Below, one piece after another: positions 1,074 to 32,661 of a DNA stretch of 64,000 bases; within the stretch, counting starts at the first letter, position 1, and every line of letters begins with the position of its first letter. The position numbers were made by a program, and so were the translations under genes. Source of the stretch: Planctomycetota bacterium (GTDB lineage Bacteria > Planctomycetota > UBA1135 > JAKEFM01); the NCBI GenBank assembly GCA_022616055.1, contig JAKEFM010000212.1, positions 18,228-82,227 on the forward strand, read 5' to 3'. Under the pieces are notes generated by a model, which saw only the letters and a list, made by a program, of their open reading frames with translations, had not been told where the DNA came from and ran no database searches.

Positions 1074-1081
1074 AACGACGC

Positions 1082-1103
1082 CGCCCCGGCGAGGGCCGGG
1101 GCG
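1082..1103. terminator. GC-rich hairpin in the convergent gap between hppA and the STAS gene (candidate bidirectional terminator)
   Basis: Perfect 8-bp stem cgccccgg/ccggggcg with a 6-nt loop in a 56-bp convergent gap. There is no clear U-tract. Confidence 0.35.
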
Positions 1104-1129
1104 GGGGTCTCCGCTCGGACGGGCGGGGG

Positions 1130-1939
1130 CTACTTCTTCCCCGTCGCCTGCTTGAGCTCCGTCTTCAGGTACCGCATGTCCTTGATGAACTGGTCGATCG
1201 CCTTGCCGTCCTCCGGGGTGACCCCGTCCAGGCGGACGCGGACCTTGACGGCCCCGTCGGGCTGCGCCTCGAATCCGAGCGCCGTCGAGTCGATCTCGAG
1301 CGGCCCCCGCTTCTTGTAGAGGGGGAGCCAGAACTTGAGGCGCATCGTCGCCTCCGAGCCGAAGATCTCCGCGGCCTGCACGGAGTCGACCTTCGCCTCG
1401 GCCCCTCCGTAGAGGAAGGCGAGCCCCTTCTCGTCGACGGTGGCGAGGCGGCCGACGCCGACCTCCTTGCCGAGCTTCTTGCGCCGGCCCGCGTCGTCGA
1501 GGGTGAAGAGAACGGTGGCGGCGTCCTTCACCTCGATCGGGCTGCGGGTCTCGACGAGGGGGTCGCGCCGGGGCGCCGGCGCCTCGGGCTCCTTCGCGGC
1601 GGGGGCGGCGACGTGGGCGAGGGCCTGCGCCTCGTCGGCGAACATCCGCAGCGAGTTCGCGAGGCCCACCTTCTCGATGACCCCCTTCACGAACGGGGAA
1701 GGCTGGGCGATCGCGAGCTCGCCCCCCGCCTCGCGCAGCCTCTTGCGCGCCTTGACGAGGGCCCCGAGCGCCGTCGAGTTCAAGAACGGCGTCAGCCGGA
1801 GGTTGAGGGCCACGCGGACGGCTCCGGCCTTCGCCAGGGCCTCGACCGCTTCGTTGAAGGCGGGGCAGTGGAACGTGTCGAACTCCCCCTTGAGGTGGAG
1901 CACGGCGCGATCCCCCTGGACGTTTTGTTCGATGTTCAT
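1130..1939 (-). CDS. STAS-domain protein (anti-sigma-factor-antagonist-like) with a ~150-aa uncharacterised C-terminal domain
   Basis: Start is placed at MNIEQNVQGDRAVLHLKGEFD (ATG 1937-1939). The N-terminal ~110 aa have a SpoIIAA/STAS-like pattern (LxLxGxxD ... LNSTALGALV). The upstream part of track ORF 1130..2758 is R/P/G-rich junk. Confidence 0.8.
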   Translation of the reverse strand: MNIEQNVQGDRAVLHLKGEFDTFHCPAFNEAVEALAKAGAVRVALNLRLTPFLNSTALGALVKARKRLREAGGELAIAQPSPFVKGVIEKVGLANSLRMFADEAQALAHVAAPAAKEPEAPAPRRDPLVETRSPIEVKDAATVLFTLDDAGRRKKLGKEVGVGRLATVDEKGLAFLYGGAEAKVDSVQAAEIFGSEATMRLKFWLPLYKKRGPLEIDSTALGFEAQPDGAVKVRVRLDGVTPEDGKAIDQFIKDMRYLKTELKQATGKK

Positions 1940-2007
1940 GTCGGAGGCCGGCGGCGGGCGAGTAGAGCGAGTGTAGGTGGACCCCTCCGGGGGGGCAAGG
2001 CGGGCCG

Positions 2008-3033
2008 TCAGCCCCTTCGAGCGGCCTTGATCCGGGCCGCGAACTCCTGCAACCCCTTCTCGACGGTCGCGACCTGCTCCGGCGTGAGGCGGCTCCCGCC
2101 CCCCTTCAACATCGAGAGGAAGTGGTCGATCTCCTCCGATTCCACGGGGCAGCCCACATTCCCCTTCGGTCCGTCCGAAGTCGCGGCGACCGCCCCTTTC
2201 GAGTCGAGGAAGGCGAACCAGGGGATCCCTCCCCCCTCTCCGGGGCGGAACCGCGCCTGGACCTCCTTGCCGTGGACCATCCGATCGATGTCGATCCTCG
2301 CCCGGACGAGATCGAGGCCGAGGACCCCGTCGATCTCCTTTCGCCCGAGGAACTCCTCGAGCCGGTGGCACCAGCCTCACCAGGGCGCGCCGAACCGGAG
2401 GAAGACCCTCTTCCCTTCCTTCCCGGCCCGGGCGACCGCCTCCGCGAGCACCTTCTCGGCGTCGAGGGGCGGGGCCGCCCACTTCTCGAGGAAGGTCTTC
2501 ACTTTCGCCGGGTCGTGCGCGGAACCCGCCTCCAGGGAGGAGGTCTCCTGGTTCGCGAGGGGCTTCCCCTCGGCGTCGAGGACCGTGAGGAAGGGGATGC
2601 CGTTCTGCCGGACGGGGGCGCCGAGGTCGGCCGCGAGGGCCTCGTTCTTGTCGAACCGTCCGACGTCGACCAGGACCTTCTCGTACTCGTAGAGGAGAAC
2701 GCGGGCGATCTCCGGGTTCTTCTTGAAGAGGTCGTCGAGCTTCCGGCACCACCCGCACCAGTTCGCCCCGAAGACGAGGAGCACTCGCTTGTTCTCCTCC
2801 TTCGCGCGGGCGAGGGCCGCCTCGATCTGCTTCTTCGCGTCGGCGGACTCGTCGTAGATCGGGGCGGGCTTCTTCTCCTCGGTGGACGGCGTCCCCTCCT
2901 GGGATCGCGCCGGAACCGCGATCAGGGCGGCGAGGAGGAGGAGGATCCCCGGCGCAGGCCTCGTCACGGAATCCGGCTCGCGTCGGGGCCCGTAGGGAGA
3001 TCGTTCGACCTTCCGAAGCAGGAGCTGCGCCAT
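2008..3033 (-). CDS. Secreted tandem thioredoxin-fold protein, predicted selenoprotein (in-frame UGA at 2377-2379 read as Sec)
   Basis: Track ORFs 2377..3033 and 2008..2280 are in the same frame, separated only by TGA. Domain 1 has VFGANWCGWC and domain 2 reads RFGAPW-TGA-GWCHRLEEF, so the TGA sits at the first Cys of a CxxC motif. An N-terminal hydrophobic signal is present (GILLLLAALIAVPA). The start may be GTG 2967 instead of 3033. Confidence 0.7.
2343..2362 (-). other. Candidate bacterial SECIS hairpin downstream of the in-frame UGA
   Basis: The mRNA GCUCGAGG-AGUU-CCUCGGGC forms an 8-bp stem (one G-U pair) with an apical loop containing GU. The loop starts 25 nt after the U of UGA, within the spacing I recall for bacterial SECIS models. 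Confidence 0.5.
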
Positions 3034-3098
3034 GGAGGACCTTGCCTTTCCGGCTCGGGTCGAGGGGAGCGGAGCGTGGGACAGCGGTCGAGAGGCAT

Positions 3099-3899
3099 CT
3101 AGCGCAGGGCCTGGATCCTCATCCGGCTGAACTTCACCTTCGTACCCTTGTCGACGACGATGCCGACCGAGCCCTTGCGGGAGGCCGTCCAGGGCATCTC
3201 CGTCTCGAAGGGCGGCCGGTCCCCTACCTTCAGGACGAACCGGTTCCCGATGCAGGAGATCTCACAGCCGGAGGGCGTCCCCGGCGTGAGTTGGCCCGGG
3301 GCGACGGCGAGGGAGACGCTCATGGCCCGCCGATCCGCATGCGGCCCGAGCCGGACGAAGAGCTCGACCTTGCCCGACTCGAAGGTGACCTCGAAGTCGA
3401 GGACGAAATCGCGCCATTTCTCCCGATCCCCGGTCGAGAGGATCCCCTTCTTCCCCGTCCCCTCGGCGGGCCCCACGATCCGGAGGGTCCCCCTCTCGAT
3501 TCGCCACGAGAAACCCTCGACCGAGTTGGCGATCCAGTCCCTCACCCTGTCGGGCGTGAGGAGATCGATCCACGGGACGGTCGCGATCGTCTCCGGGGTG
3601 AACACCGCCGCGCACAGCGCGTTGCTCTCGTCCAGGATGCCCCGGTACTGGCGCTCGAAGAACTCCTGGTCTTCCTTGACCCGCGAGACGAAGGAGCGCT
3701 CGAAGAGCCGGTAGACCTCCTCCTCCGCCTGCTTGTAGCGGTCGAGCGCCTCCCTCCCCTTGTCGGGGTTCGCGGCCAGGGCCTTCGCCTCCGCGTGCAG
3801 CCGACTAGCCTGGTCGCGATCGGGCTCGTTCGGCGCCTGGACGGCGGCGCCGCCGACGATCAGCAGAGGGACGCTCAGGGGAAGGACGGCAGCCCGCAT
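3099..3899 (-). CDS. Secreted DUF1080-like (3-keto-disaccharide hydrolase / LamG-fold) protein
   Basis: Start is placed at MRAAVLPLSVPLLIVGGAAVQA (signal peptide, ATG 3897-3899). The C-terminal W..G.L...G...L.T...Y.DF.L..E pattern (FSWRIERGTLRIVGP ... WRDFVLDFEV) resembles DUF1080. Confidence 0.75.
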   Translation of the reverse strand: MRAAVLPLSVPLLIVGGAAVQAPNEPDRDQASRLHAEAKALAANPDKGREALDRYKQAEEEVYRLFERSFVSRVKEDQEFFERQYRGILDESNALCAAVFTPETIATVPWIDLLTPDRVRDWIANSVEGFSWRIERGTLRIVGPAEGTGKKGILSTGDREKWRDFVLDFEVTFESGKVELFVRLGPHADRRAMSVSLAVAPGQLTPGTPSGCEISCIGNRFVLKVGDRPPFETEMPWTASRKGSVGIVVDKGTKVKFSRMRIQALR

Positions 3900-4017
3900 C
3901 GGCGAGGCTCCTTCGGGGGGAAAGGCAGGGTCGAGCACACTCTTGGACCCGCGCTGCGTCAAGGGCGAGACCAGAATGGACGCGACGCCGCGCATTCTCG
4001 CGGCGCCATGCCTCCTC

Positions 4018-5538
4018 TCAAGACCCTGCGCGAGCGAGCGAGCGGCGGATCTCGTCCTTCCGGATCTTCCCGGTGCCCGTCTTGGGCAGCTCGGGGAGGA
4101 AGACGAACCGCTTCGGGATCTTGAAGGAGGCGATGTGCTCCTTGAGATACGCGGCGAGCGCCTCGGGCTCGACCTGCTCGCCCGGGCGCAACACGACGGC
4201 CGCCGTCACCGCCTCTCCCCACTCCTCGTCCGGGAGGCCGACGACGGCGCACTCGAACACGGAGGCGTGGGTCGAGAGCGCGGCCTCGACCTCGACGGAG
4301 TAGACCTTCTCGCCGCCGGTGAGGATCACGTCCTTCTTCCGGTCGACGATGTTGACGGAGCCCTCCGCGTCCCAGGTCGCGAGGTCGCCGGTCTTGAACC
4401 AGCCGTCCTCGAACGCGGCGGCGGTCTCCTCGGGACGGTTCCAGTAGCCGGGCGTCACCCAGGGCGCCCGGACCCGGATCTCGCCGACGGAGCGGTCGTC
4501 GCGCGGGACGTCGCGGCCCGAATCGTCGACCACCCGCAGGCGGACGCCGATCGCGGGCCTTCCCGTCCGGGAGATCCAGCGTCGCTGCTCGGCGGCCGGC
4601 CGATCGCGGAGCGTCCGCTTGAGGGCGGAGAAGGTGAGGTAGGGGCTCGTCTCGGTGAGGCCGTAGGTCTGGACGTAGGTCGTGCCAAAGGTCTCGACGA
4701 CCCGCTCGAGGAGCGCGGGGGAGATCGGCGCGCCGCCCGAGAGGATCGCCCGGAGCGCGGGGAAGGGGGCCGCCCGTGCGGTGGGCTCGGCGACGAGGCG
4801 CGCGAGCATCGTCGGGACGAGGTTCGTGATCGTGACCCCTCGGGAGCGGAGCCCCTCGAGGACGGGACGGGGCTCGAAGTCGGGGAACATCGCGTGCCTC
4901 CCCCCGACCCAGGTGACGGCGAAGACGGCCCAGGCGTCGGCGAGGTGGAACATCGGCGCGACGTGGGCCCAGACATCGCCGTCCGCGAGGCCGAGCTCCG
5001 CGATCGCCATCAGGGAGTGGGAGGCGATGTTTCGCTGGAGGAGCATCGCCCCGCGAGGGCGCCCGGTCGTCCCGCTCGTGTAGTAGATCTGCGCGAGGTC
5101 GTCGGGCGTGCGCAGGGCGGGGGCGCTCCCGCCGACCGCGGCGTGGAGGGCGCCGACCTCCGCGACCCGCACTCCGCCCCCCGCCTTGGCGGAGGCTTCT
5201 TCCGCCAGCGGACGGAAGCGCGCCTCCGTCAGGAGAAGGCGGGCTCCGGCATCGCCGAGCTGCTCGCCGAGGGTCGCCGCGTCGAGCCGGACGTTGAGGG
5301 GGACGAGGACCTCGCCGCCGAGGAGCGTGCCGAACGCGGCCTGGAGGAAGCGGTGGCAGTTGCGGTGGAGGATCGCGACGCGGTCGCCGGGGAGGAGCCC
5401 GGCCGCACCGAGGCCGCCCGCGAGCGCGAGCGCCTCGCGCTCGAGGTCCGCGTACGTCCAGGCGTGGTCGCCGCAGAAGACCGAGGGCTCCCGGCCGTAG
5501 AGGAGGACCGCCCGCTCGAGGATCGAGGAGAGTTCCAT
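4018..5538 (-). CDS. AMP-dependent acyl-CoA synthetase/ligase (fatty-acid--CoA ligase family)
   Basis: Start at MELSSILERA (ATG 5536-5538). AMP-binding motifs YTSGTTGRPRGA, QTYGLTET, GWFKTGDLA and GKIRKDEIR are present. The longer track ORF 4018..5925 has a junk N-terminus. Confidence 0.92.
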   Translation of the reverse strand: MELSSILERAVLLYGREPSVFCGDHAWTYADLEREALALAGGLGAAGLLPGDRVAILHRNCHRFLQAAFGTLLGGEVLVPLNVRLDAATLGEQLGDAGARLLLTEARFRPLAEEASAKAGGGVRVAEVGALHAAVGGSAPALRTPDDLAQIYYTSGTTGRPRGAMLLQRNIASHSLMAIAELGLADGDVWAHVAPMFHLADAWAVFAVTWVGGRHAMFPDFEPRPVLEGLRSRGVTITNLVPTMLARLVAEPTARAAPFPALRAILSGGAPISPALLERVVETFGTTYVQTYGLTETSPYLTFSALKRTLRDRPAAEQRRWISRTGRPAIGVRLRVVDDSGRDVPRDDRSVGEIRVRAPWVTPGYWNRPEETAAAFEDGWFKTGDLATWDAEGSVNIVDRKKDVILTGGEKVYSVEVEAALSTHASVFECAVVGLPDEEWGEAVTAAVVLRPGEQVEPEALAAYLKEHIASFKIPKRFVFLPELPKTGTGKIRKDEIRRSLARAGS

Positions 5539-9448: not shown

Positions 9449-11779
9449 GTGAAGCAGCGGGTCCTCGCCCCCTCCCCTGGAAAGAGCGACGCGGAGGTTC
9501 TCGCCCGTCTCTCCGGGGCGGTGGAGCCCCATCTCGGGTCGATCGCGGAAGGGTGCGCCGACGTTCTCCTCGGGCGCGAGGAGGCGAGGCGGTACTTCGC
9601 CGGGGAAGAGGGGAAGTGCCTCGACCGGACCGAGGAGCTCCTCGCCTGGCTCCGGGGGCTCTTCTCCGTCGAGGTCGAGTCGACCCGCCGGGCGCGGTGG
9701 GAGCGATTCGGCGGAGTCTGCTTCCGGATGGGGCTTCCCGTCCAGGTCGTCGTGGCCTGCGTCGGGGCCGCCCGCCAGCGGCTGGCCGAGATCCTGCGCC
9801 GCCGTCTCTCGCGGAGCCGGGACCTGCTCGCACGCTCCGTGAACGCCCTCCACCGCACGCTCGACACCGAGCTGGGCGGGATCCTCGAGGCCCACGAGGA
9901 GCACCGGCTCCGGGGGGTCGAGGAGAATCGACGACTGCTCGCGGAGGCGGAGATCGACCGCACGCGCAGGGAGGCCGAGGAGCGGTTCTGGCTGCTGGCG
10001 GAGGCGACGACCCTCGGGATCTACGACTGGGACATCCCGAAGGACCTCCTCTGGTGGAGCGAGGGGTTCTACCGCCTGTTCGGCTACGAGCCGGGGACCC
10101 GGACGTCGAACATCGCGTGGTGGAAGAAGGGGATCCACCCGAAGGACTACCCCCGCGTGGTCGCGGGGATCGAGAAGGCGATCGAGGAGAAGGCGCGGTT
10201 CTGGACCGACGAGTACCGGTTCGCCCGGGGGAACGGGACCTACGCCTGGGTCCTCGACCGCGGCTACTTCATCCGCGACGAGGCGGGGCGGGCCGCCCGG
10301 ATGGTGGGGGCGATGATCGACCTCTCGGACCGCCGCGAGTCCGAGGAGCGGTTCCGCCTCCTCGCGGAGGCGACGAACGACACCGTCTGGGACTGGGACC
10401 TCGTCAAGGACGTCGTCTGGTGGGGGGAGGGATTCCGGCGGATGTTCGGCGATGCCCCGGGGACGAGCGGCTGCATCAACAACTGGTGGACGCTGAGGAT
10501 CCATCCGGAGGACCGGGAGCGGGTCTCGGCGGGGCTCAAGGCCGTGGTCGAGAAGAGCCTCCCGTTCTGGACGGAAGAGTACCGGTTCCGGCGCGCGAAC
10601 GGGACCTACGCCGACATCCTCGACCGGGGGTACACGATCCTCGACGACTCCGGGAAGCCCGTCCGGATGGTCGGCGCGATGATGGACGTCACGGACCGGC
10701 GTCAGGCCGAGCAGGAGATCCGGCGTCAGAGGGACCTCGCCGAGCGGATCCTCCGCAGCAGCCGCGAGGCGATCGTCGTCGTCGACCGGGAGCTCCGGTT
10801 CACGCTCTGGAACCCCGCCGCGGAACGGATGTCGGGCCTGAAGGCGGAGGAGGTCCTCGACCGGAATGTCTTCGAGGTCTTCCCGTTCATCCGGGAGATG
10901 GGGGACGAGGGGGGCCTCTTCCGCGCTCTCGCGGGGGAGCCGGTGTCGCTGCGCCGCCGCCGCTTCCACATCCCCGCGACCGGGCGGGGCGGCCTCTACG
11001 ACGCGCAGCTGAGCCCGCTGCGGGACGAGAAGGGCGAGATCGTGGGGGTCCTCTCCGTCTCCCGGGACGTCACCGAGGAGGAGCGGATGAAGGAGACCCT
11101 CGGGCGCGCGGAGCGCTTCTCCGCGCTCGGCGAGGTCGCGGCGATGATCGCCCACGAGGTCCGCAACCCCCTCACGGCGACGAAGGGGGTGCTCCAGGTC
11201 CTGCTGCGGCGGCTCCCCCAGGAGTCCGCCGATCGCGCGGCGGTGTCGGAGACGGTGGAGCGGCTCGACGCCCTCGCCCGTCTCATCACCGACCTCCTCT
11301 CGTTCTCCCGGCCGATCCACGTCCAGGTCCGGCCGCTCGACGCGCGGGAGGCCCTGCGCACGATCGCGGAGGGTCTCGGCCGGGAGGAGGGGTTCCGGCT
11401 CCTCTCCGTCCGGTTCGAGGACCCGGGGGACGTCGGCCGGATCGCCGCCGACCCCGCCCTCCTCTGGATGGCCTTCCTCCACCTCGCCCGCAACGCCGTC
11501 GAGGCGGCGAACGGCCCCGCCGAGATCACCCTCCGGGCGGAGCGCGTCGGGGAACGGATGGCGCTCCGGATCCTCGACCGGGGCCCCGGCATCGATCCGG
11601 CCGTCGGCTCGAAGCTCTTCTCCCCCTTCTTCTCCACGAAGCCCGGCGGGACCGGCATCGGACTCGCCATGGTGAAGCGGATCGCGGAGGCCTTCGGCGG
11701 CGAGGTCGAGGCCTCGAACCGGCCGGGAGGCGGGGCGGTCTTCACCCTCTACCTCCCGCTCGCGGAGGCCGAAGCGTAG
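9449..11779 (+). CDS. Soluble sensor histidine kinase: globin-coupled-sensor-like N-domain + 3 PAS + HisKA + HATPase_c
   Basis: GTG 9449 is the first in-frame start after junk in track ORF 7193..11779. H-box MIAHEVRNPL, N-box LARNAVEA, G-boxes DRGPGI and GGTGIGLAMV. PAS_3-like repeats are present (WW.EGF.R.FG). Confidence 0.9.
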   Translation: MKQRVLAPSPGKSDAEVLARLSGAVEPHLGSIAEGCADVLLGREEARRYFAGEEGKCLDRTEELLAWLRGLFSVEVESTRRARWERFGGVCFRMGLPVQVVVACVGAARQRLAEILRRRLSRSRDLLARSVNALHRTLDTELGGILEAHEEHRLRGVEENRRLLAEAEIDRTRREAEERFWLLAEATTLGIYDWDIPKDLLWWSEGFYRLFGYEPGTRTSNIAWWKKGIHPKDYPRVVAGIEKAIEEKARFWTDEYRFARGNGTYAWVLDRGYFIRDEAGRAARMVGAMIDLSDRRESEERFRLLAEATNDTVWDWDLVKDVVWWGEGFRRMFGDAPGTSGCINNWWTLRIHPEDRERVSAGLKAVVEKSLPFWTEEYRFRRANGTYADILDRGYTILDDSGKPVRMVGAMMDVTDRRQAEQEIRRQRDLAERILRSSREAIVVVDRELRFTLWNPAAERMSGLKAEEVLDRNVFEVFPFIREMGDEGGLFRALAGEPVSLRRRRFHIPATGRGGLYDAQLSPLRDEKGEIVGVLSVSRDVTEEERMKETLGRAERFSALGEVAAMIAHEVRNPLTATKGVLQVLLRRLPQESADRAAVSETVERLDALARLITDLLSFSRPIHVQVRPLDAREALRTIAEGLGREEGFRLLSVRFEDPGDVGRIAADPALLWMAFLHLARNAVEAANGPAEITLRAERVGERMALRILDRGPGIDPAVGSKLFSPFFSTKPGGTGIGLAMVKRIAEAFGGEVEASNRPGGGAVFTLYLPLAEAEA
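9980..10711 (+). repeat. Tandem duplication of a PAS module inside the kinase gene (2 x 366 nt)
   Basis: ERFWLLAEATTLGIYDWDIPKDLLWWSEGFYRLFGYEPG... aligns with ERFRLLAEATNDTVWDWDLVKDVVWWGEGFRRMFGDAPG..., with a period of exactly 122 codons. Confidence 0.7.
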
Positions 11780-11804
11780 GGATCGGGCGGCGTTTGGCCC
11801 GCCG

Positions 11805-12608
11805 TCAGCGCAGTCCCGCGCCCCGGATCTCCGCCCGCAGGCGGGCCTCGACCTCCTCGAGCGCGACGCCGCTCCCTCCGTCGGCCGAGAGCGAGACGAC
11901 GATCCGGATCGAGTCCTTCGCGCCGGCCACCCGGGACTTGGCGTAGACGCCGGGGAACGCCTGCAGGATCGCGCGCAGGAGGGGGGCGAGGCCCGACTCG
12001 TCGCGGATCGCGAGCTCGACGTCCCGGTGGAGGGGGGCGAGCCCCCGCGGGAGGAGCCTCGCGATCTCCGGCTCGACCTCCTCGCGCCACACGACCTCCA
12101 TCTCGTCGGGTACGCCGGGGAGGCAGAAGAGGATCGCCCCGCCCGTCTCGATCGCGACCGCGGGGGCGGCCCCGACCCGGTTGCGGACCGGGCGGGCGCC
12201 CACCGGGAGCCGGGCCATCTTCTCCCGCTCGGGCGTCAGGTCCGCCGAGCCCGCGAGGCCGCGCGCGGCGAGATCGCGGTAGGACTCCGCCACCCACTCG
12301 AGCGCCGTCGGGTGGAGGCGGAACGGGCGGTCGAGGGCCCGGGAGAGACCCTCGAGGGTCCGGTCGTCGAAGGTCGGCCCGAGCCCTCCCGTCGAAACCA
12401 CGATTCTCGGCCGGAGGGCGAGGGCGGCGGCGAACTCCCGGGCGATCGCATCGGCGTCGTCGTCCGCCGCCGCGATCCGCAGGACCTCGGCGCCGAGGGA
12501 GGTCAGGCGACCGGCGAGGAAGTGGGCGTTCGTGTCGAGGGTCCGGCCCCGGAGGATCTCGCGCCCAATCGAGAGGACGGCCGCCGATCGGGTCCCCGCG
12601 TCAGACAT
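11805..12608 (-). CDS. CinA-like MoCF/molybdopterin-binding domain protein
   Basis: AVLSIGREILRGRTLDTNAHFLA and STGGLGPTFDDRT motifs. Its ATG lies inside the last 8 nt of pepQ. Confidence 0.85.
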   Translation of the reverse strand: MSDAGTRSAAVLSIGREILRGRTLDTNAHFLAGRLTSLGAEVLRIAAADDDADAIAREFAAALALRPRIVVSTGGLGPTFDDRTLEGLSRALDRPFRLHPTALEWVAESYRDLAARGLAGSADLTPEREKMARLPVGARPVRNRVGAAPAVAIETGGAILFCLPGVPDEMEVVWREEVEPEIARLLPRGLAPLHRDVELAIRDESGLAPLLRAILQAFPGVYAKSRVAGAKDSIRIVVSLSADGGSGVALEEVEARLRAEIRGAGLR

Positions 12609-13914
12609 GCGGGCGGGTGAGATTCCGGTGGCCGTCCGCCGTCGCCAGGACGTCGTCCTCGATGCGGATCCCCCCGCAGGGGACGAGGCGATCGACGAGG
12701 GCCCAGTCGACGAGGGAGGCGGCGGGCGCCGAGCGGAGGCCCCTCAGGAGCATCGGGATGAAGTAGACGCCGGGCTCGACGGTCACGACCTGTCCCTCCT
12801 CGATCGTCCGGGTCGTCCGGAGGAAGGGATGGCCCTCCGGGGGCGGGACCTCCCCTCCTTCCCGGGCGGCCTGCCGGCCCGCGACGTCGTGGACCTGGAG
12901 GCCGAGGAAGTGGCCCAGCCCGTGGGGGAAGAAAGGGGTCGTCAGCCCCGCCGCGAACGCCTCCTCGCCTCCCCGGCGCAGGATCCCCGTCCCGTGGAGG
13001 AGGTCCGCGATGCGGACGTGGGCGGCGCGGTGGAGATCGGGGAAGGGGATCCCCGGCCGCACGGCCGCGCAGAGCGACTGCTGGATCGACTCGAGGCCGC
13101 GGACCAGGTCGCGGAAGACCGGCTCGCACGCCGGCGTCGTCCAGGTCCGGGTGATGTCGGAGGCGTAGCCGAGGTGGCGCGCCCCCGAATCGAGGAGGAA
13201 GACCTTCCCGTCCCGGACCGCGCGCTTGACCGTGTAGTGGAGGGTCGCCGCCTTCTCGTCGAGGGCCACGATGCTCTCGTAGGGGAGGTCCTTGTCGACG
13301 CAGCCGAGGGCGGACACGTAGAGGCGGTGGAGCTCGATCTCGGAGCCGCCCGTCTCGAAGGCGGCGCGGGACGCGAGGTGTCCCTTCGCGGCGCGGCGGT
13401 TCGCCTCCTCGATGCAGGCGACCTCGTAGGGGGTCTTGAGGCTGCGATCCCAGTCGAGCCGGCGGAGAAGGCGTTCGGGGTTCACCGCCTCGGTCGGGAC
13501 GCCGCCGGCCCGGGCGCGCTCCGGAGCGTCGCCGATGTAGGCGGTGCGCCTCCCGGGCGAGGCCCGCTTCCAGGCCTTCTCCTCGTCGGGGACCTCGACG
13601 ATCTCGAACTCCCCGACCCAGAACGGATCCCCGAGGGGCGCCGGCTCGGTCCAGTAGTCCTCCGGCGCGACGCGGATCAGCAGAGGGGGGCCGCCCGGGC
13701 GGACGAGGAGCAGGTGATGGGGGCCCTCGAGCGGCGTCCACTGCGCGAACGGCGGATTCGTACGGAACGGCGCGTCCTGGTCGTCCTGGAAGTAGCGGGA
13801 GGGCCTGCCGGCGTCGAGGAGGATCGCGTCGAAACGTTCGGCGGCGAGCGTGTCGGTCGCGCGCCGGCGCATCCGCGCGAGGTGATCCCGGTAGAGGGCG
13901 GCCGGCGCGCTCAC
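12601..13914 (-). CDS. pepQ: Xaa-Pro dipeptidase (prolidase, M24B)
   Basis: GTG start overlaps the dtpT stop (GTGA). Motifs LLDSGARHLGYASDITRT, FPHGLGHFLGLQVHD, VTVEPGVYF and GGIRIEDDV. Confidence 0.9.
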   Translation of the reverse strand: MSAPAALYRDHLARMRRRATDTLAAERFDAILLDAGRPSRYFQDDQDAPFRTNPPFAQWTPLEGPHHLLLVRPGGPPLLIRVAPEDYWTEPAPLGDPFWVGEFEIVEVPDEEKAWKRASPGRRTAYIGDAPERARAGGVPTEAVNPERLLRRLDWDRSLKTPYEVACIEEANRRAAKGHLASRAAFETGGSEIELHRLYVSALGCVDKDLPYESIVALDEKAATLHYTVKRAVRDGKVFLLDSGARHLGYASDITRTWTTPACEPVFRDLVRGLESIQQSLCAAVRPGIPFPDLHRAAHVRIADLLHGTGILRRGGEEAFAAGLTTPFFPHGLGHFLGLQVHDVAGRQAAREGGEVPPPEGHPFLRTTRTIEEGQVVTVEPGVYFIPMLLRGLRSAPAASLVDWALVDRLVPCGGIRIEDDVLATADGHRNLTRPHV

Positions 13915-18850: not shown

Positions 18851-19279
18851 CTAGGCCGCCTTCACGTCGGAGGCGCAGTGCGCGCAGCGCGTCGCCTTGA
18901 GGGGGATCGCCGAGAGGCAGAAGGGACAGTCCCTCGTCGTCGGGGCGGCCGGGGCGGGGGCGGGCTTCCTCATCCGGTTCACCTGCTTGACGAGCACGAA
19001 CACGGCGAACGCGACGAGGACGAAGTCGATGACGGCGTTGATGAAGACGCCGACCTTGAGCTTCGGGGCCTTCGCGGGATCCGCTCCCGCGACGGCGAGG
19101 TCGATGGCGAGATTCGAGAAGTCGACCTTCCCGAGGAGCAGTCCGAGCGGCGGCATCAGGACGTCGTTCACGGCGGAGGTGACGATCTTCCCGAACGCGC
19201 CCCCGATGATGATCCCGATCGCCATGTCGAGGACGTTGCCCCGCATGGCGAACTCCTTGAATTCCTTCAGCATGCCCAC
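18851..19279 (-). CDS. mscL: Large-conductance mechanosensitive channel with a C-terminal CxxC...CxxC tail
   Basis: [30 protein letters not shown] is the canonical MscL N-terminus. SD AAGGAGG lies 7 nt upstream of GTG 19279. The tail reads [19 protein letters not shown]. Confidence 0.92.
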
Positions 19280-27069: not shown

Positions 27070-27804
27070 ATGGAACGGCGGAGCCAGTATCGAATCGAGC
27101 TCGGGGAAAAGAGCACCGTCGAGGTGAGCATCCTCGTCAAGAACCGGCCGCTCATGGTCGGCCGCCTCCACGACGTCTCCGCCGAGGGGGCGGGGGTGGT
27201 GCTCCCGAGCCTCGCGAGCGCCCCTCTCGCCGTCGGCGAGGAGGCCGAGCTCGTCTTCGTCGGCAAGACGATCGTCAAGCCGCTGCGGGTCTCCGCGGTC
27301 CTCGTCCACCACCGGATCGAGGGGAGGGGGGCGGAGGCGGTCCAGCACTTCGGATTCGACTTCACGAACAAGGACGGGTTCGACGAGCTCCTGATCGCCC
27401 AGGACCTCCACGTCCTCTTCAACCGCCGCAAGACCCGGCGGGTCGAGCCGGACCCGGAGGAGCCGGTCGAGGCCCTCCTCGAGGACGAGGTCCGCGGCAA
27501 GTCGGGATCGGCGCGCGTCGTCGACCTCTCGACGTCCGGGGTCGGGCTCCACGTCACCTCCAAGGTCGACTCCCGGTTCGCCGAGGTGGAGAAGGTCCGC
27601 GTCGCGCTCCGGCTCCCGGGGATGACCGAGGACCTCCGGCTCGAGGGGAACGTCCGTCACCGCTCGGAGACGACCGGGGGAGGGATGCGGTACGGCATCG
27701 AGTTCGACCGGGTGCGGACGCCCCGTTTCGCCGAGCAGCAGGCGGTCCTCGTGCGGTACGTCGCCGGCTGCCTGCGCCAGCTCCTCAAGACCGGCGCGAA
27801 GTAG
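27070..27804 (+). CDS. Tandem PilZ-domain protein (putative c-di-GMP receptor)
   Basis: Two complete PilZ signatures: RRSQYR...DVSAEGAG and RRKTRR...DLSTSGVG. SD AGGAG lies 5 nt upstream of the ATG. Confidence 0.87.
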   Translation: MERRSQYRIELGEKSTVEVSILVKNRPLMVGRLHDVSAEGAGVVLPSLASAPLAVGEEAELVFVGKTIVKPLRVSAVLVHHRIEGRGAEAVQHFGFDFTNKDGFDELLIAQDLHVLFNRRKTRRVEPDPEEPVEALLEDEVRGKSGSARVVDLSTSGVGLHVTSKVDSRFAEVEKVRVALRLPGMTEDLRLEGNVRHRSETTGGGMRYGIEFDRVRTPRFAEQQAVLVRYVAGCLRQLLKTGAK

Positions 27805-28115
27805 CGCGCCTCGCGACGCTTCCCGGCCCGCCCGGGCCGCGGGTAGGATCGCGCCCGCTCTCCCGCCCCCGCGACGCGCGAGCGGGAGGATGCCATGATG
27901 CGACGCCCCGCACCGTTTTCAGCGACGTGGGCCTCCTCCCCGCGGCTCCGGCGCAGGCCCCTCGGGCGGCGAAGGCGAGCCGCGGGGACTTCGCGCGCGG
28001 CGACCCCCTCCTCGATGCGGCCCTCGCCCGGCGGGGTGAGTGGCCGGACGACGCCTCCCCCCCGGGCGCGGCTTCGCTTCACGAGGTCGACGGAGTAGCC
28101 GGGCGAGCCCGGATC

Positions 28116-30377
28116 ATGCGGATCACGTTCCGACTGATCGTCTCCCTCGTCGTCGTGGTGGCCGTGGTCGCGGCCACCTCGGCGTGGATCCACGTCGGCC
28201 AGGACCGCGCCCAGCGGCAGGACGAGATCGAGAGGCGATCTCGCCTCCTCGCGCTCACCCTCCAGGAGGTCGTCCAGCCCCTGGTGTCGGAGGAGACCTC
28301 CGAGCGGCTCCGGGGAATCGTCGAGAAGTACGCGAACCGGGAGCGACTGGCCGGCGTCGCGGTCTACGACAGGGAGGGACGCCTCCTCGCGGCGACCGCC
28401 GCCCTCTCCGGGGTGTTCGCCGAGCCCCCCGCGGCCGTCCGAGAGGCCCTGTCGAGATCCGTGGACGGGAGCGCGTTCGTCGAGATGGGGGGGAAGGAGG
28501 TCCACCTCTACGCCCTGCCCCTGACGGACGGGGGCGGGGTCGCCCACGCGCTCCTGATCGTCCACGATGCCTCCTTCATCCAGGCCCAGTTGCGGCAGAT
28601 CTGGCTGCACGCCTTCGTCAGGGTCCTCGCCCAATCCGCGCTCATCACCCTCGTCACGCTCCTCGTCATCCGGTGGAGCGTCTTCGGCCCGATCGCCCGG
28701 ATGGCGGAGTGGATGCGCGCGCTCCGCTCGGAGGGTGAGGTGCGCCCCCCGGAAGTCCCCAAGGGGGACCTCTTCGCGCCCATCGCCCGGGAGGTGACCA
28801 CCTTTGCCCGGCATCTGTCGGCGGCCAAGGCCGCGGCCGAGAGGGAGGCTGGACGCCCGCGGAAGGATGAGCCGGCCGGGACCCCGGAATGGCTCAAGGA
28901 GCATGTCCGCGCCCGCCTCGGGGACAAGCCGCTCTTCGTCGTCTCCAACCGGGAGCCCTACATGCACCTGCGGCGCGGCAGGGACGTGGAGGTCATCGTC
29001 CCTGCGGGAGGGCTCGTGACCGCGCTGGAGCCCGTGCTTCGGGCCTGCGGGGGGACGTGGATCGCGCATGGGGCCGGCGACGCCGACTTCGAGGTGACCG
29101 ACGGGAAGGGCCGGCTCCAGGTCCCCCCCGGCGACCCCCGCTACACCCTCCGGCGCGTCCCCCTCTCCAAGGAGGAGGAGCAGGGGTACTACTACGGCTT
29201 CTCCAACGAGGGGCTCTGGCCGCTCTGCCACCTCGCCCACACGCGCCCCATCTTCCGGGCCGACGATTGGGCCCAATACCAGCGGGTCAGCGAGAAGTTC
29301 GCGACGGCGGTCCTCGAGGAGGTGGAGGGGCTCGAGGATCCCTTCGTCCTCATCCAGGACTACCACTTCGCCCTCCTCCCGCGCCTCCTCAAGGAGCGCC
29401 GTCCCGAGATCCGGGCCGCCCTCTTCTGGCACATCCCCTGGCCCAATCCGGAGGCCTTCGGGATCTGTCCCTGGCAGCGCGAGCTGCTGCAGGGGATGCT
29501 CGGGGCCGATCTCGTCGGGTTCCAGACCCAGTCCCACTGCAACAACTTCCTCGACACGGTCGACGCCGCGCTCGAGGCGCGCGTGGACTGGGAGCGCTTC
29601 GGGGTCTCGAAGGAGGGCCACCTCACCCTGGTCAAGCCCTTCCCGATCAGCGTGGCGTTCCCCCCCGTCGCGCGGGATCCCTACCCGACGCCTCCCCGCG
29701 CGAAGGACCGCGACACGCTCCTGAAGGAGCTCGGGGTCCGCGCGAGGTTCCTCGGCGTGGGGGTGGACCGGCTCGACTACACGAAGGGGGTCCTCGAGCG
29801 CTTCCGGGCGATCGAGCGCTTCCTCGAGAAGCACCCCCGCTACCAGGGGGAGTTCGTCTTCGTCCAGATCGGCGCGCCGAGCCGGACCTACATCAAGCGC
29901 TACCACGACTTCCTCGCCGAGGTGGAGGCCGAGGCGCAGCGCATCAACTGGCGCTTCAAGAGGAAAGACTGGCGCCCGATCGTCTACCTCGAGAAGCACC
30001 ACAGCCACGAGGAGATCCTCCCGTACTATCTCGCCGCGGACCTCTGCATGATCACCTCCCTCCACGACGGGATGAACCTCGTCGCCAAGGAGTTCGTCGC
30101 CTCGAGGGAGGACGGGGAGGGGGTCCTCGTCCTGAGCCAGTTCGCCGGCGCCTCCCGGGAGCTGCGGGACGCCCTGATCGTCAATCCCTACAACGCCGAG
30201 CAGGGGGCGGAGGCGATCCGGTACGCGCTCGAGATGGACCCCGAGGAACGGCGGGCCCGGATGAAGGCGATGAGGGAGACGCTTCGCGAGAACAACGTCT
30301 ACCGCTGGGCCGGGAGCCTGATCGAGGAGCTCTCCCGCCTGCGGCTGCGCGAGCCCACTCCGGCGGGGAGCGAGTGA
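28116..30377 (+). CDS. otsA: Trehalose-6-phosphate synthase (GT20, OtsA-like) fused to an N-terminal 2-TM sensor and HAMP module
   Basis: The first ATG gives [25 protein letters not shown] (TM1). A ~165-aa loop, TM2 ([19 protein letters not shown]) and a HAMP-like region ([13 protein letters not shown]...[12 protein letters not shown]) follow. GT20 motifs are [49 protein letters not shown] and [13 protein letters not shown]. Confidence 0.9.
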
Positions 30378-30378
30378 G

Positions 30379-30777
30379 ATGCCCTCCGCCCTTTTCCTGT
30401 GCCGGCACAACGCCTGCCGGAGCCAGATCGCCGAGGCGGTCTGCCGGAGCCTCGCGCCGGCGTGGGACGTGGCGAGCGCGGGCTCGAGGCCGTCGGCGGA
30501 CGTGGACCGGAAGGCCGTGGAGATCCTCCGCCGCCACGGCCTCGCGATGGCGAGCCCTCGCCCCAAGGGCGTCCCCGGCCTCCCCTCCCGGCGCTGGGAC
30601 GTCGTCGTCTGCATGGGATGCGACGGCGCGGGCGCCGGCCTGCCGAGCGGTCGCTACGTCGAGTGGCCCGTCGAGGACCCCAGCGACGGGCCGATCGAGA
30701 TCTACGAGGCCCTCTTCCGGGAGTTGAGCGAGCGCGTCGGCGGGCTCGTCCGGGAAGCGGAGAGCCCCGCCCGATGA
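30379..30777 (+). CDS. Low-molecular-weight phosphotyrosine-phosphatase / ArsC-fold protein
   Basis: Starts 1 nt after the otsA stop. CX5R(S) P-loop LCRHNACRSQIAE. DPSDG (Asp loop)-like VEDPSDG. Only part of the Trx-coupled ArsC Cys triad is present. Confidence 0.82.
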   Translation: MPSALFLCRHNACRSQIAEAVCRSLAPAWDVASAGSRPSADVDRKAVEILRRHGLAMASPRPKGVPGLPSRRWDVVVCMGCDGAGAGLPSGRYVEWPVEDPSDGPIEIYEALFRELSERVGGLVREAESPAR

Positions 30778-31454
30778 TCCCGCGGGCGCGGGAGCCGTTC
30801 CGCTTCTTCGTCCGGACGAGCCTCACCCTCGTCACGGGGATCCGGGCCCGGACCGTCCGCGAGCTCGCCGGTCGCCTGAAGGAGGCCCCGGACTCCTGCG
30901 TCTACCAGCACACCCACCGGTTCCTCCAAGAGCACCAGTACCTCGTGCCGGAGCCGCCGAACGACTTCGCGTACTGGGCGACGGAGATGCTCCAGGACGA
31001 GGCGCTGGGCGAGCGCCTGGCCTCCGTCGACACGGTCCGGTTCCGCTCGCTCGGGGAGCTGCGGGCCGCCCTCCTCGGGGTCCTCGAGGACCATGTCCTC
31101 CGGAACGGGGAGGGCCGCCCCGCCCCCCCCGGGAAGGAGTTCCACTTCATGCGGGCCGTCCGCTTCTCCGTGCCGACCCGCGAGGTGGCCCACGATCTCG
31201 CCGAGTTCGGCGATTGCCTGCGCAGGGTGGGCCTCTCGAGCCTCTACCTCCACGTCTTCGAGGCCCGCCTTCGCCTCCCGAGCGTCGAGGCCAACGACTT
31301 CGCGGTCTGGTTCGAACGGGAGCTGGGGGAGGCCGAGCTCGCCCGGCGGGTGGGCCGCCTCGACCCCTACGCCCACACGCTCCAGGGCCTGCGCGCGCGT
31401 CTCCTCGCCATGGTGAGGAGCCGCCTCAAGGATCTCGGCCATGCCCCGGCTTGA
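30774..31454 (+). CDS. Conserved hypothetical protein, resembles the family I recall as DUF5752 (TreT-associated)
   Basis: ATGA overlap with the phosphatase gene. FFVRTSL...TGIRARTVRELAGRLKE...SCVYQHTHRFLQEH...NDFAYW. The family assignment is from memory only. Coding is supported by codon bias and coupling on both sides. Confidence 0.75.
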   Translation: MIPRAREPFRFFVRTSLTLVTGIRARTVRELAGRLKEAPDSCVYQHTHRFLQEHQYLVPEPPNDFAYWATEMLQDEALGERLASVDTVRFRSLGELRAALLGVLEDHVLRNGEGRPAPPGKEFHFMRAVRFSVPTREVAHDLAEFGDCLRRVGLSSLYLHVFEARLRLPSVEANDFAVWFERELGEAELARRVGRLDPYAHTLQGLRARLLAMVRSRLKDLGHAPA

Positions 31455-32661
31455 GGAGTACGCGCCGATCGTCGGCGCGGACACCCTCGAGGAGCTCTCC
31501 CTCGTCGCGGACCGCGTCAAGGGACGCTCCGTCCTCCACGTCAACTCGACGGCGGTGGGGGGGGGGGTCGCCGAGATCCTGCACCGCATGGTCCCCCTGT
31601 TCCGCGAGCTCGGCCTCGACGCCCACTGGGAGGTGATCCGCGGCGGCGAGGACTTCTACGCCGTGACGAAGAAATTCCACAACGCCCTCCACGGCCAGCC
31701 GGCGGAGTTCACGGCCCGGGACTTCCAGGTCTACGGCGAGACGACGGCGGAGAACTTGGCCCGCCTCGCGCTCGACGCGGAGGTCGTCTTCATCCACGAT
31801 CCGCAGCCCGCCGCCCTCGTGGAGAAGCGCGGGGCCAACCGCTGGGTGTGGCGCTGCCACATCGACCTCTCCCAGCCGGACGAGCGGGCCTGGGCCTTCC
31901 TCCGGCCGTACGTCGAGCGATACGACGCCTGCATCGTCTCGGCCCCCGGCTTCGCCCAGGAGCTCCCGATCCGCCAGGTGCTCATCGCCCCGTCCATCGA
32001 TCCCCTGAGCGAGAAGAACCGGGAGCTCTCCCCCGACGAGGTCCGCGGCGTCCTCGCGCGCCTCGGCATCCCGACGGACAAGCCCCTCGTCACGCAGGTC
32101 TCGCGCTTCGACCGCCTGAAGGATCCCCTCGGCGTGATCGAGGCGTTCCAGCGGGCCAAGCCCTACGTCGACGCGCGGCTCCTCCTGGTCGGGGGCTCGG
32201 CCGACGACGACCCGGAGGGGGCCCAGGTCCTCGCCGAGGTGCGGGACCGCGCCAGCGGCGAGCCGGACATCCTCGTCCACGAGCTCCCTCCCACGAGCCA
32301 CCTCGAGATCAACGCCATCCAGCGCGCCTCGACGGTCGTCCTCCAGAAGTCCCTGCGGGAGGGCTTCGGCCTCACGGTCGCCGAGGCCCTCTGGAAGGGG
32401 AAGCCGGTCATCGCGGGCGCGGTCGGCGGCATCCCCCTCCTGATCGCCCACAAGCACTCGGGGATCCTCGTCCACTCGGTAGAGGGGGCGGGCTACTGGA
32501 TGAGGCGCCTCCTCTCCGAGCCCGAGTTCGCCACCCGGCTCGGGGCCAACGGCCGGGAGCATGTCCGGCAGAATTTCCTCCTCACGCGCCACCTCCGGGA
32601 CTACCTCCTCCTCATCCTGTCCCTCGATCACCCCGGGGAGGACTTCGTCCCCCTGCGGTGA
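31441..32661 (+). CDS. treT: Trehalose glycosyltransferring synthase (TreT, GT4)
   Basis: Near-colinear by-eye match to my recollection of the archaeal TreT sequence: HVNSTAVGGGVAEILHRMVPL, FYAVTKKFHNALHG, HDPQPAAL, WRCHIDLS, PSIDPLSEKN, VSRFDRLKDP and SLREGFGLTVAEALWKGKPVI. It overlaps the upstream gene by 14 nt. Confidence 0.92.
   Translation: MPRLEEYAPIVGADTLEELSLVADRVKGRSVLHVNSTAVGGGVAEILHRMVPLFRELGLDAHWEVIRGGEDFYAVTKKFHNALHGQPAEFTARDFQVYGETTAENLARLALDAEVVFIHDPQPAALVEKRGANRWVWRCHIDLSQPDERAWAFLRPYVERYDACIVSAPGFAQELPIRQVLIAPSIDPLSEKNRELSPDEVRGVLARLGIPTDKPLVTQVSRFDRLKDPLGVIEAFQRAKPYVDARLLLVGGSADDDPEGAQVLAEVRDRASGEPDILVHELPPTSHLEINAIQRASTVVLQKSLREGFGLTVAEALWKGKPVIAGAVGGIPLLIAHKHSGILVHSVEGAGYWMRRLLSEPEFATRLGANGREHVRQNFLLTRHLRDYLLLILSLDHPGEDFVPLR

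Follow-up and report, generated by a model that had tools for sequence, protein, structure and literature searches.

A Cache-type transmembrane sensor and a HAMP-like unit fused to trehalose-6-phosphate synthase: a possible one-protein receptor-enzyme of uncultured bacteria

Can a membrane receptor gate a metabolic glycosyltransferase directly, within one polypeptide? The question is raised by a single gene in a 64,000-nucleotide (nt) stretch of DNA from a Planctomycetota bacterium (assembly GCA_022616055.1, contig JAKEFM010000212.1, positions 18,228 to 82,227 of the forward strand), referred to below in its full length as the window. The gene occupies positions 28116 to 30377 of the plus strand, stop codon included, and its frame encodes 753 amino acids (aa) without an internal stop. 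Hydropathy, Pfam searches and AlphaFold2 (AF2) models agree with the domain order that had been read from the sequence: a first transmembrane helix (TM1), an extracytoplasmic sensor, a second transmembrane helix (TM2), a two-helix unit resembling HAMP domains and a complete glycosyltransferase of family GT20, here of the kind found in OtsA-type trehalose-6-phosphate (T6P) synthases (TPS). We consider it almost certain that this is a real membrane-anchored T6P synthase bearing an extracytoplasmic Cache-type domain. It is also probably a membrane-integrated receptor-enzyme, in which the sensor module gates the T6P synthase in one protein. Osmotic, envelope or desiccation stress as the stimulus is put forward only tentatively.

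The fusion of sensor and GT20 is far beyond chance and is not an artefact. The sensor module is present in 412 species-representative genomes from more than 12 phyla, with carriers in the Elusimicrobiota, Lindowbacteria, Thermodesulfobacteriota and other 'Deltaproteobacteria', Nitrospirota, Nitrospinota, Acidobacteriota, Methylomirabilota, Eisenbacteria, Zixibacteria, Ignavibacteriae/Bacteroidota, Binatia, Omnitrophota and Planctomycetota. Loci were counted in the best 80 of these 412 genomes, all of them metagenome-assembled genomes (MAGs); 73 of the loci contain the complete 3' end of the gene and 72 include at least 1.2 kb downstream. A GT20 domain lies on the same strand about 816 nt past the start of the module in 79 of the 80, the remaining locus running into a contig end. 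Sensor and GT20 form one open reading frame (ORF) of 742 to 766 aa in 69 of the 73 complete loci. In the other four (L018, L024, L034 and L044) the frame is broken after 329 to 553 aa with GT20 still downstream, through either assembly or frameshift errors or recent pseudogene formation.

Full-length searches returned at least 120 clusters of about 750 aa at 59–70% identity, with coverage of 96–100% for nearly all, and a search seeded with an Acidobacteriota member added at least 120 more, giving together at least 240 full-length clusters at 90% identity. An exhaustive search of 1.84 billion representatives with a profile built on the first 272 residues (alignment A2) gave 347 clusters (50% level) at E <= 1e-30, and 2,936 when the limit was relaxed to E <= 1e-3. 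Among the best 150 representatives the module carried no kinase, cyclase or other output; all those long enough to judge had GT20 or short domain-free tails. A general-purpose role for the sensor module was rejected, since the 34 matches that end in unaligned sequence have no Pfam domain and probably are fragments of low quality. Short 'stand-alone' module entries also occur in the databases (P0020, P0025 and P0041). We treat these as probable gene-calling or frameshift products, which is not proven case by case, because the Omnitrophota locus L084 has GT20 directly 3' of the module.

What does the module look like? Hydropathy peaks at residues 7–25 (score 2.63) and 167–185, positions kept in homologues, mark TM1 at residues ~4–26 (28125 to 28193; this and all further parts of the gene are on the plus strand) and TM2 at residues ~164–187 (28605 to 28676). 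Both helices that the sequence-only reading had proposed are thus retained, but the segment between them (residues ~27–163; 28194 to 28604) is about 137 aa long rather than about 165. AF2 models were built as monomers with the family alignment and reached an overall predicted local distance difference test (pLDDT) score of 76.9 for the full length and 81.0 for residues 1–272. They place a helix at residues 2–56 that includes TM1, an alpha/beta core at 63–151 and a helix at 153–204 that runs from the sensor through TM2 into the cytoplasm, followed by a loop (205–219), a helix (220–245), a poorly predicted stretch, a further helix (257–268) and the GT-B fold of the enzyme. The sensor itself is modelled at pLDDT ~85–94 as a long N-terminal helix and an alpha/beta core with an antiparallel sheet of about five strands, held between the two transmembrane helices.

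Profile and fold comparisons lead to the same neighbourhood of sensor domains. Against the PDB, the A2 profile matches the extracellular domain of WalK (5is1, 4ywz and 7dud; E = 2e-5 to 4e-4). Foldseek returns as its best match a full-length WalK model (9a5d_A), with 256 aligned columns from TM1 to HAMP at E = 3e-9, followed by WalK extracellular domains (TM-score 0.75 normalised to target) and the sensors of KinD, DctB, CitA and DcuS; the sensor-domain matches have E values of 1e-8 to 1e-4. Sub-threshold Pfam matches, counted per member in 33 sequences, fall to SMP_2 (23), CHASE8 (11) and dCache/sCache models (5–6). The N-terminus of the planctomycetote protein, the query of these searches, shows weak matches to SMP_2/YtjB and dCache_1 in Pfam and to DgcN/YfiN in NCBIfam, SMP_2 at E = 1e-4 to 5e-4 and 22.5 bits against a gathering cut-off of 28.9. 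Curated thresholds were reached by none of dCache_1, sCache_3_2, dCache_3, Cache_WalK, CHASE8 and SMP_2. On the WalK profile and fold matches and this sub-threshold Pfam pattern, we predict the loop to be a single Cache/PDC-type sensor in the WalK/YtjB/CHASE8 neighbourhood, closest to WalK. Its near-invariant polar residues are R40, R41, N74, R75, E76 and D85, and its near-invariant motif is VE(K/R)(F/Y)GNRERL; N74, R75, E76 and D85 are candidate residues for a putative ligand pocket on the membrane-distal side.

Straight after TM2, by both hydropathy and AF2, the HAMP-like unit begins at about residue 188 (residues 188–246; 28677 to 28853). It consists of a first amphipathic sequence (AS1) with Pro192, a variable connector and a second amphipathic sequence (AS2) with invariant Glu226 and Ala237. 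Pro192 is near-invariant, AS1 ends in the consensus LRxGE, and the canonical Glu of the DEIG motif is replaced (DLF.P). When the post-TM2 segment was isolated (alignment A3, query residues 183–250), Pfam HAMP was matched in 36 of 59 relatives, with a best E of 1.8e-5, while every other family was matched in two members at most; alignments in individual relatives extend up to profile positions 2–52 of 53, a normal length. An hhalign comparison of A3 with the Af1503 HAMP domain covers 48 columns in full register with one gap, at a weak E of 0.005, and pairs Pro192 with the AS1 Pro, Gly207 with the Gly at the end of AS1 and Asp218 with the start of DEIG; this alignment is used for residue correspondence only. 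The Pfam-certified HAMP of locus L005, where a HAMP-guanylate cyclase gene neighbours the sensor-GT20 gene, aligns with A3 over AS2 only (E = 0.14). On sequence profiles and models together, we read this as a divergent HAMP-like unit, canonical in position, length and helix-connector-helix arrangement and recognisable at family level below the curated threshold; its assignment to HAMP is only partly supported.

Two further observations concern HAMP domains around these loci. A home-built HAMP profile, made from three poly-HAMP units and from Af1503, Tsr and EnvZ sequences, became trapped on three proteins and found no family member; it was discarded as an inadequate reference and is not counted against HAMP. 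Locus L086 encodes on its minus strand (1 to 4363) a histidine kinase of 2,108 aa in which nearly identical HAMP and HAMP_2 units alternate over a long array. This poly-HAMP kinase is encoded on the strand opposite to the Acidobacteriota sensor-GT20 operon, some 2.6 kb upstream of it, and two more kinases, of the HisKA_3 type, flank the operon.

Whether the sensor and the enzyme are coupled can be judged from the way in which segment lengths are kept, and for this purpose lengths and consensus frequencies were taken from an alignment of 290 full-length members. The TM2 segment (residues 161–187) is 27 aa long in 100% of them, AS1 is 19 aa in 100% and AS2 is 27 aa in 100%. The distance from the start of AS2 to Arg279 of the VSNR.P motif is 60 aa in 99%; this arginine lies in the first beta-strand of the catalytic domain, and its counterpart in E. 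coli OtsA is, we take it, the one that binds the glucose-6-phosphate acceptor. GT20 had been thought to follow the HAMP unit directly, which turns out not to be so: between them lies a linker (residues 247–272; 28854 to 28931) that contains the helix 257–268 (TPE.LKEHV) and measures 26 aa in 99% of members. From TM2 to the catalytic arginine, insertions and deletions are confined to the HAMP connector, which varies from 11 to 16 aa; elsewhere, a GT20 surface loop (residues 501–545) varies from 38 to 49 aa. Mean consensus frequency is 0.74 in AS1, 0.71 in AS2, 0.58 in the sensor and 0.81 in GT20. Because length changes occur only in the connector and a strict register is kept from the membrane to the first catalytic strand, the fixed lengths argue, at the level of sequence, for register-dependent signalling over passive anchoring.

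From this register, the conservation of the HAMP helices and the gene context, allosteric regulation of the enzyme by its N-terminal module seems to us reasonably likely. The receptor-enzyme would probably be dimeric. The cue, arising in the periplasm or the membrane and most plausibly an osmotic or envelope/desiccation stress, would shift TM2, which continues into what may be a HAMP-like four-helix bundle, and the shift would change helical register or packing there. The rigid linker could then hand this change on to the N-lobe of the GT-B fold and so alter acceptor binding or lobe closure, and T6P synthesis would be switched on or off post-translationally, without a kinase or second messenger. 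The T6P would be dephosphorylated by a co-encoded phosphatase, OtsB in most relatives and possibly a low-molecular-weight phosphatase in the query. A TreT-like GT4 enzyme and an OrfY-like protein encoded alongside could provide a second trehalose route or an activating complex of the kind found in Thermoproteus tenax.

Several observations weigh against such a working relay. The HAMP scores in relatives are 16.8–21.3 bits against a gathering cut-off of 25 and stay below it in every member inspected singly. The two-helix unit of the sequence-only reading holds up in position, length, AF2 helices and sub-threshold matches among relatives; the query itself has no Pfam HAMP match even at E <= 10. 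Probabilities from hhalign against single HAMP sequences are low, and a PDB search with the A3 profile brought up no HAMP chain at E <= 10, its sole match (E = 7.3) being meaningless. An hmmsearch with A3 of the 4,093 ORFs that reach 100 aa in the loci and the window returned 87 family ORFs only and no genuine HAMP; it also missed the poly-HAMP kinase of L086 and the HAMP-cyclase of L005. AF2 confidence is low over residues 200–256 (pLDDT ~50–60), in models of monomers. The family is only moderately divergent, at the 59–70% identity of the full-length matches listed, and part of the length conservation therefore reflects relatedness. In the query's own clade the coupling could be looser: after AS2 the family consensus reads EEEARLRxxAESLWTPER, and at 28848 to 28880 of the window (residues ~245–255) a Pro/Gly-rich variant of the same length replaces the conserved ARLRxxAESLW, which could loosen helical coupling there. 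This variant is common to the query and its closest relatives, P0001 and P0002; a frameshift origin was rejected, as these two have the same variant at equal length and the other frames give nothing similar. On the side of the stimulus, MscS-like matches are weak and occur in a minority of loci (9 of 72), and the MscL gene of the window (18851 to 19279, minus strand) lies about 9 kb upstream of the gene. Finally, no cultured carrier was found among the best 80 loci, in the Acidobacteriota branch or on a 4.2-Mb contig from an ENA metagenome assembly.

Some of these points would fit a passive membrane anchor or scaffold, in which the module only localises T6P synthesis and the Cache and HAMP parts are relics of a sensor ancestor. 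The anchor could serve assembly with OtsB, the TreT-like GT4 and OrfY, or placement near channels or transporters. This is the rival that survives best, and we regard it as unlikely. It draws on the sub-threshold HAMP that goes undetected in the query, on the Pro/Gly-rich segment after AS2 and on the co-operonic partners, which could form a complex as in T. tenax. It can also appeal to the top fold match, a WalK-YycH model, given that the extracellular domain of WalK acts mainly as a protein-interaction surface. Yet an anchor needs no periplasmic domain of about 137 aa with near-invariant polar residues, no cytoplasmic helices about as conserved as the enzyme and no fixed lengths from TM2 to the catalytic arginine, and relics would be expected to decay or vanish in some of the 412 genomes, whereas the complete ORF is kept in 69 of the 73 loci. 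A strict register with length changes in the connector only is what a mechanically coupled HAMP relay would predict.

The second question is what the enzyme makes. The claim of a complete GT20 region is borne out: PF00982 matches residues 274–740 at E = 4e-116 over profile positions 4–472 of 473, and the domain as a whole spans residues 273–741 (28932 to 30338). Solved T6P synthases, namely 5jij (7e-80), fungal Tps1 and E. coli OtsA (1gz5/1uqt, ~3e-69), align with it from end to end. By comparison with 5jij and 6jbi, the catalytic and substrate signature motifs are intact, including the N-terminal Arg, GGL, the His of QDYH, a motif with the Arg/Lys residues and the Asp/Glu of DGMNLVAKE, with residue roles that we presume from E. 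coli OtsA. The domain is predicted to be catalytically competent. In NCBIfam the query scores 427.6 bits with OtsA (TIGR02400) against a cut-off of 564.85, 480 against 634 with the bifunctional OtsA/OtsB model (PRK14501) and 293.9 against 569 with GgpS, so all three remain below their equivalog cut-offs, and the protein therefore represents a distinct subfamily that is still closest to OtsA. Pfam finds no HAD/TPP (T6P phosphatase) domain in the 753-aa protein.

Gene context supplies further evidence on the pathway. In the window the synthase heads a tight string of four plus-strand genes: the synthase, an LMWPc gene, a DUF5752 gene and a GT4 gene. One nt past the synthase stop begins a 132-aa protein of the low-molecular-weight protein tyrosine phosphatase (LMW-PTP)/ArsC-fold phosphatase family (30379 to 30777; Pfam LMWPc). 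Its gene overlaps by 4 nt that of an OrfY-like DUF5752 protein (30774 to 31454; PF19027), which overlaps by 14 nt that of a TreT-like GT4 glycosyltransferase (31441 to 32661; Pfam TreT_GT1 and Glycos_transf_1). The GT4 protein matches the NCBIfam model TreT_Thcocales over its full length (E = 3e-110, 368.7 bits), the cut-off of 775 not being reached. DUF5752, on which no paper was found in the searchable literature, matches PDB entry 4cso ('OrfY protein, transcription factor') at E = 5e-17, and OrfY is presumably the operon partner of treT in T. tenax. A pair made up of a DUF5752 gene and a TreT-like GT4 gene is found on one side or the other of the sensor-GT20 gene in 42 of 72 loci, and the cluster thus appears, from gene content, to join a trehalose module of the TreT/OrfY type to one of the OtsA type.

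In 36 of the 72 loci a canonical OtsB gene comes next after the synthase gene, and 51 loci contain OtsB at some position. The fullest operon consists of sensor-GT20, OtsB, DUF5752 and TreT-like GT4. In the Verrucomicrobiota locus L003, TreS/maltokinase and then MscS (11728–13176) lie directly downstream, and an MscS-like gene adjoins the 3' end of the synthase gene in L034 and L083. From this context the pathway is taken to be trehalose synthesis, and the context offers a link to osmotic stress that falls short of proof; in Sulfolobus acidocaldarius, growth under salt stress requires trehalose (PMC7688234). On the other side of the synthase in the window, 311 nt upstream on the same strand, lies a gene for a 244-aa PilZ-domain protein (27070–27804). 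It was rejected as a part of the system, with no homologue in any of the 80 loci.

No OtsB is encoded in the 64-kb window, and the LMWPc gene stands in its slot. The same arrangement is seen in L005, L007, L011, L017, L021, L023, L024, L025 and L029. LMWPc and OtsB exclude each other: none of the 8 LMWPc loci among the 72 has OtsB, and none of the 51 OtsB loci has LMWPc (Fisher p = 1.7e-5). In L005 (6001–8685) the sensor-GT20 protein (P0162) has the LMWPc domain as a C-terminal fusion, mirroring TPS-TPP fusions. The window protein scores 51 bits with the NCBIfam ArsC-like model against a cut-off of 157.6, and its best PDB match is 3t38. In the P0162 domain the P-loop, CX5R(S), and the DP motif are retained and the CMGC cysteines of the window copy are missing, which argues against a thiol-cascade arsenate reductase. 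The LMWPc protein is thus a candidate non-orthologous T6P phosphatase that may have displaced OtsB in the query's clade; a regulatory protein phosphatase is the alternative. As the LMWPc loci are all close relatives, a single replacement event may account for them.

This context also bears on a second rival, according to which the GT20 domain makes another glycosyl phosphate, for example glucosylglycerol-phosphate, or is a non-catalytic regulatory or ligand-binding domain reporting on sugar-nucleotide status. GT20 does hold non-TPS enzymes such as VldE, the Tps3 and Tsl1 subunits of yeast have non-catalytic regulatory GT20 domains, and the OtsA, OtsA/OtsB and GgpS cut-offs all go unreached. 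Against this, solved T6P synthases make up all of the best matches, over the whole domain and with motifs intact, the OtsA model scores well above GgpS, OtsB is the next gene in half of the loci, and TreS/Mak and TreT-like genes are neighbours. We consider a different product or a non-catalytic role very improbable.

Is the gene, finally, what its coordinates say it is? The DNA of the window is 72% G+C and gives long ORFs in many frames, and codon-position composition was therefore used. The G+C content of third codon positions (GC3) is 0.9–1.0 and that of second positions (GC2) ~0.3–0.6 from the ATG at 28116 to the stop, the first 270 codons included, and GC3 is uniform over the junction of the N-terminal module and GT20. 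Upstream, the frame is open to a GTG at 27927, and the stretch 27927–28115 has a GC2 of 0.63–0.67, which is non-coding-like. Since homologue proteins share the start MR(I/V)T with the query, the ATG at 28116 is the predicted start codon. The internal Met past the HAMP unit that would have undone the architecture is contradicted by this codon bias and also by the first 272 residues, which show purifying conservation from phylum to phylum. The public record MCI0588240.1 uses the upstream GTG and gives an 816-aa form; several homologues of 787–823 aa show TM1 displaced by ~55–65 residues in the same way, and codon-position composition and homologue starts indicate that all of these are probably over-extended start calls.

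An identical protein (P0057) is encoded on a 97.9-kb contig of the MAG assembly GCA_973789155.1, in a cluster with members labelled Planctomycetota. On the minus strand an ORF of 985 aa (27657–30614) spans the whole gene; its translation is low in complexity and rich in Arg, Gly, Pro and Asp, and it was rejected as a gene, being a typical shadow ORF of 72%-GC DNA. The 311-nt gap upstream gave no Rfam match at E <= 1 to a riboswitch or leader RNA, and sigma-70 and terminator scans of the 72%-GC DNA upstream were uninformative. An artefact, whether a YtjB-like gene and a soluble OtsA gene joined by sequencing error or an internal start, could point to the short module entries, the 4 interrupted ORFs among 73 and the 816-aa start, but is scarcely credible beside a frame that runs unbroken in 69 of 73 assemblies, independent of one another and spread over more than 12 phyla, uniform GC3, a linker conserved at fixed length, interrupted loci with GT20 still directly downstream, and Met283 as the only Met near the GT20 start, which follows the VSNREP motif, so that a product starting there would lack Arg279.

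How does the protein compare with known systems? The soluble OtsA/Tps1 enzymes (E. coli 1gz5/1uqt, Mycolicibacterium thermoresistibile 5jij and fungal Tps1) have the same GT-B GT20 domain with all motifs, and like most relatives in the present family they have a T6P phosphatase gene as partner. They are ~455–515 aa long and without transmembrane helices, whereas the family adds a 272-residue module of TM1, Cache, TM2, HAMP-like unit and linker; the solved OtsA/Tps1 chains align from about residue 3–28 and lack that module, in keeping with the earlier statement that characterised OtsA enzymes are soluble. WalK (YycG) presents the same order of TM1, extracellular Cache (PAS-like) domain, TM2 and HAMP, but its output is a PAS-DHp-CA kinase, while here a glycosyltransferase follows, with no phosphorelay or response regulator and at 14–18% identity. 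In DgcN/YfiN (CHASE8-HAMP-GGDEF) and the HAMP-adenylyl/guanylyl cyclases, a sensor and HAMP likewise sit on a catalytic domain in one polypeptide. Their outputs make second messengers and are obligate dimers on a coiled-coil stalk; the output here is a GT-B enzyme for a compatible-solute precursor. YtjB/Smp (SMP_2, COG3726), whose transmembrane helix and first periplasmic half are the commonest Pfam match in the family, differs in being a short stand-alone protein of unknown function.

Automated annotation calls the family members 'trehalose-6-phosphate synthase', occasionally with a YtjB-like note, and misses the sensor; the JGI label on some members is 'trehalose-6-phosphate synthase/uncharacterized membrane protein affecting hemolysin expression'. 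In concept only, the BcsA-PilZ cellulose synthase is similar, as a glycosyltransferase switched by an attached signalling domain. BcsA is a GT2 membrane polymerase that responds to cytoplasmic cyclic di-GMP on PilZ, with no transmembrane sensing, HAMP or homology to the family.

Post-translational control of a TPS is known from T. tenax, where in the msc-gt-tpsp operon the GT4 protein activates the TPS by complex formation (PMC3634074). As in the query, a GT20 TPS is there co-operonic with a GT4; it is also linked to a mechanosensitive channel, and among relatives of the query MscS-like genes are neighbours in 9 of 72 loci. The T. tenax TPS is soluble and has a C-terminal TPP fusion that is required for activation by the GT, while in relatives of the query the TPP is a separate gene; its GT4 is PimA-like rather than TreT-like, and the system has no membrane sensor. 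No description of a transmembrane sensor or HAMP paired with a glycosyltransferase output, or of a membrane-bound OtsA, was found in the searchable literature, which agrees with the sequence-only reading that the pairing is uncharacterised. The parts (GT20 TPS, Cache-type sensor and HAMP-like relay) are already known; what would be new is a glycosyltransferase as output class for a HAMP-type receptor. Neither a histidine kinase nor a cyclase nor a TPSP of the T. tenax kind, the protein is like a WalK/YfiN-type receptor with a swapped output. Taken whole, the proposal of a new class of one-protein receptor-enzymes, an 'osmostat' in which a Cache sensor and a divergent HAMP gate a GT-B T6P synthase and LMWPc may displace OtsB, is to our mind evenly balanced.

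Trehalose regulation in bacteria is understood mainly as transcriptional or as acting through soluble allosteric effectors, and the receptor outputs listed in censuses of signal transduction are kinases, cyclases, chemoreceptors and phosphatases. We know of no glycosyltransferase among the HAMP output classes described. If the proposal is true, a membrane receptor would directly control a metabolic glycosyltransferase, providing a fast route from envelope or osmotic stress to a compatible solute and a transcription-independent, instantaneous response in many uncultured soil and groundwater bacteria. Central carbohydrate metabolism would join kinases, chemoreceptors, cyclases and phosphatases in the range of HAMP outputs, and the family would offer a simple, assayable system for HAMP readout by an output that is a GT-B enzyme and not a coiled coil. 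It would also amount to a widespread, unannotated layer of stress response in uncultured phyla, among them Elusimicrobiota, Acidobacteriota, Nitrospirota, Methylomirabilota and Planctomycetota, with a bearing on desiccation and salt tolerance in soils and aquifers.

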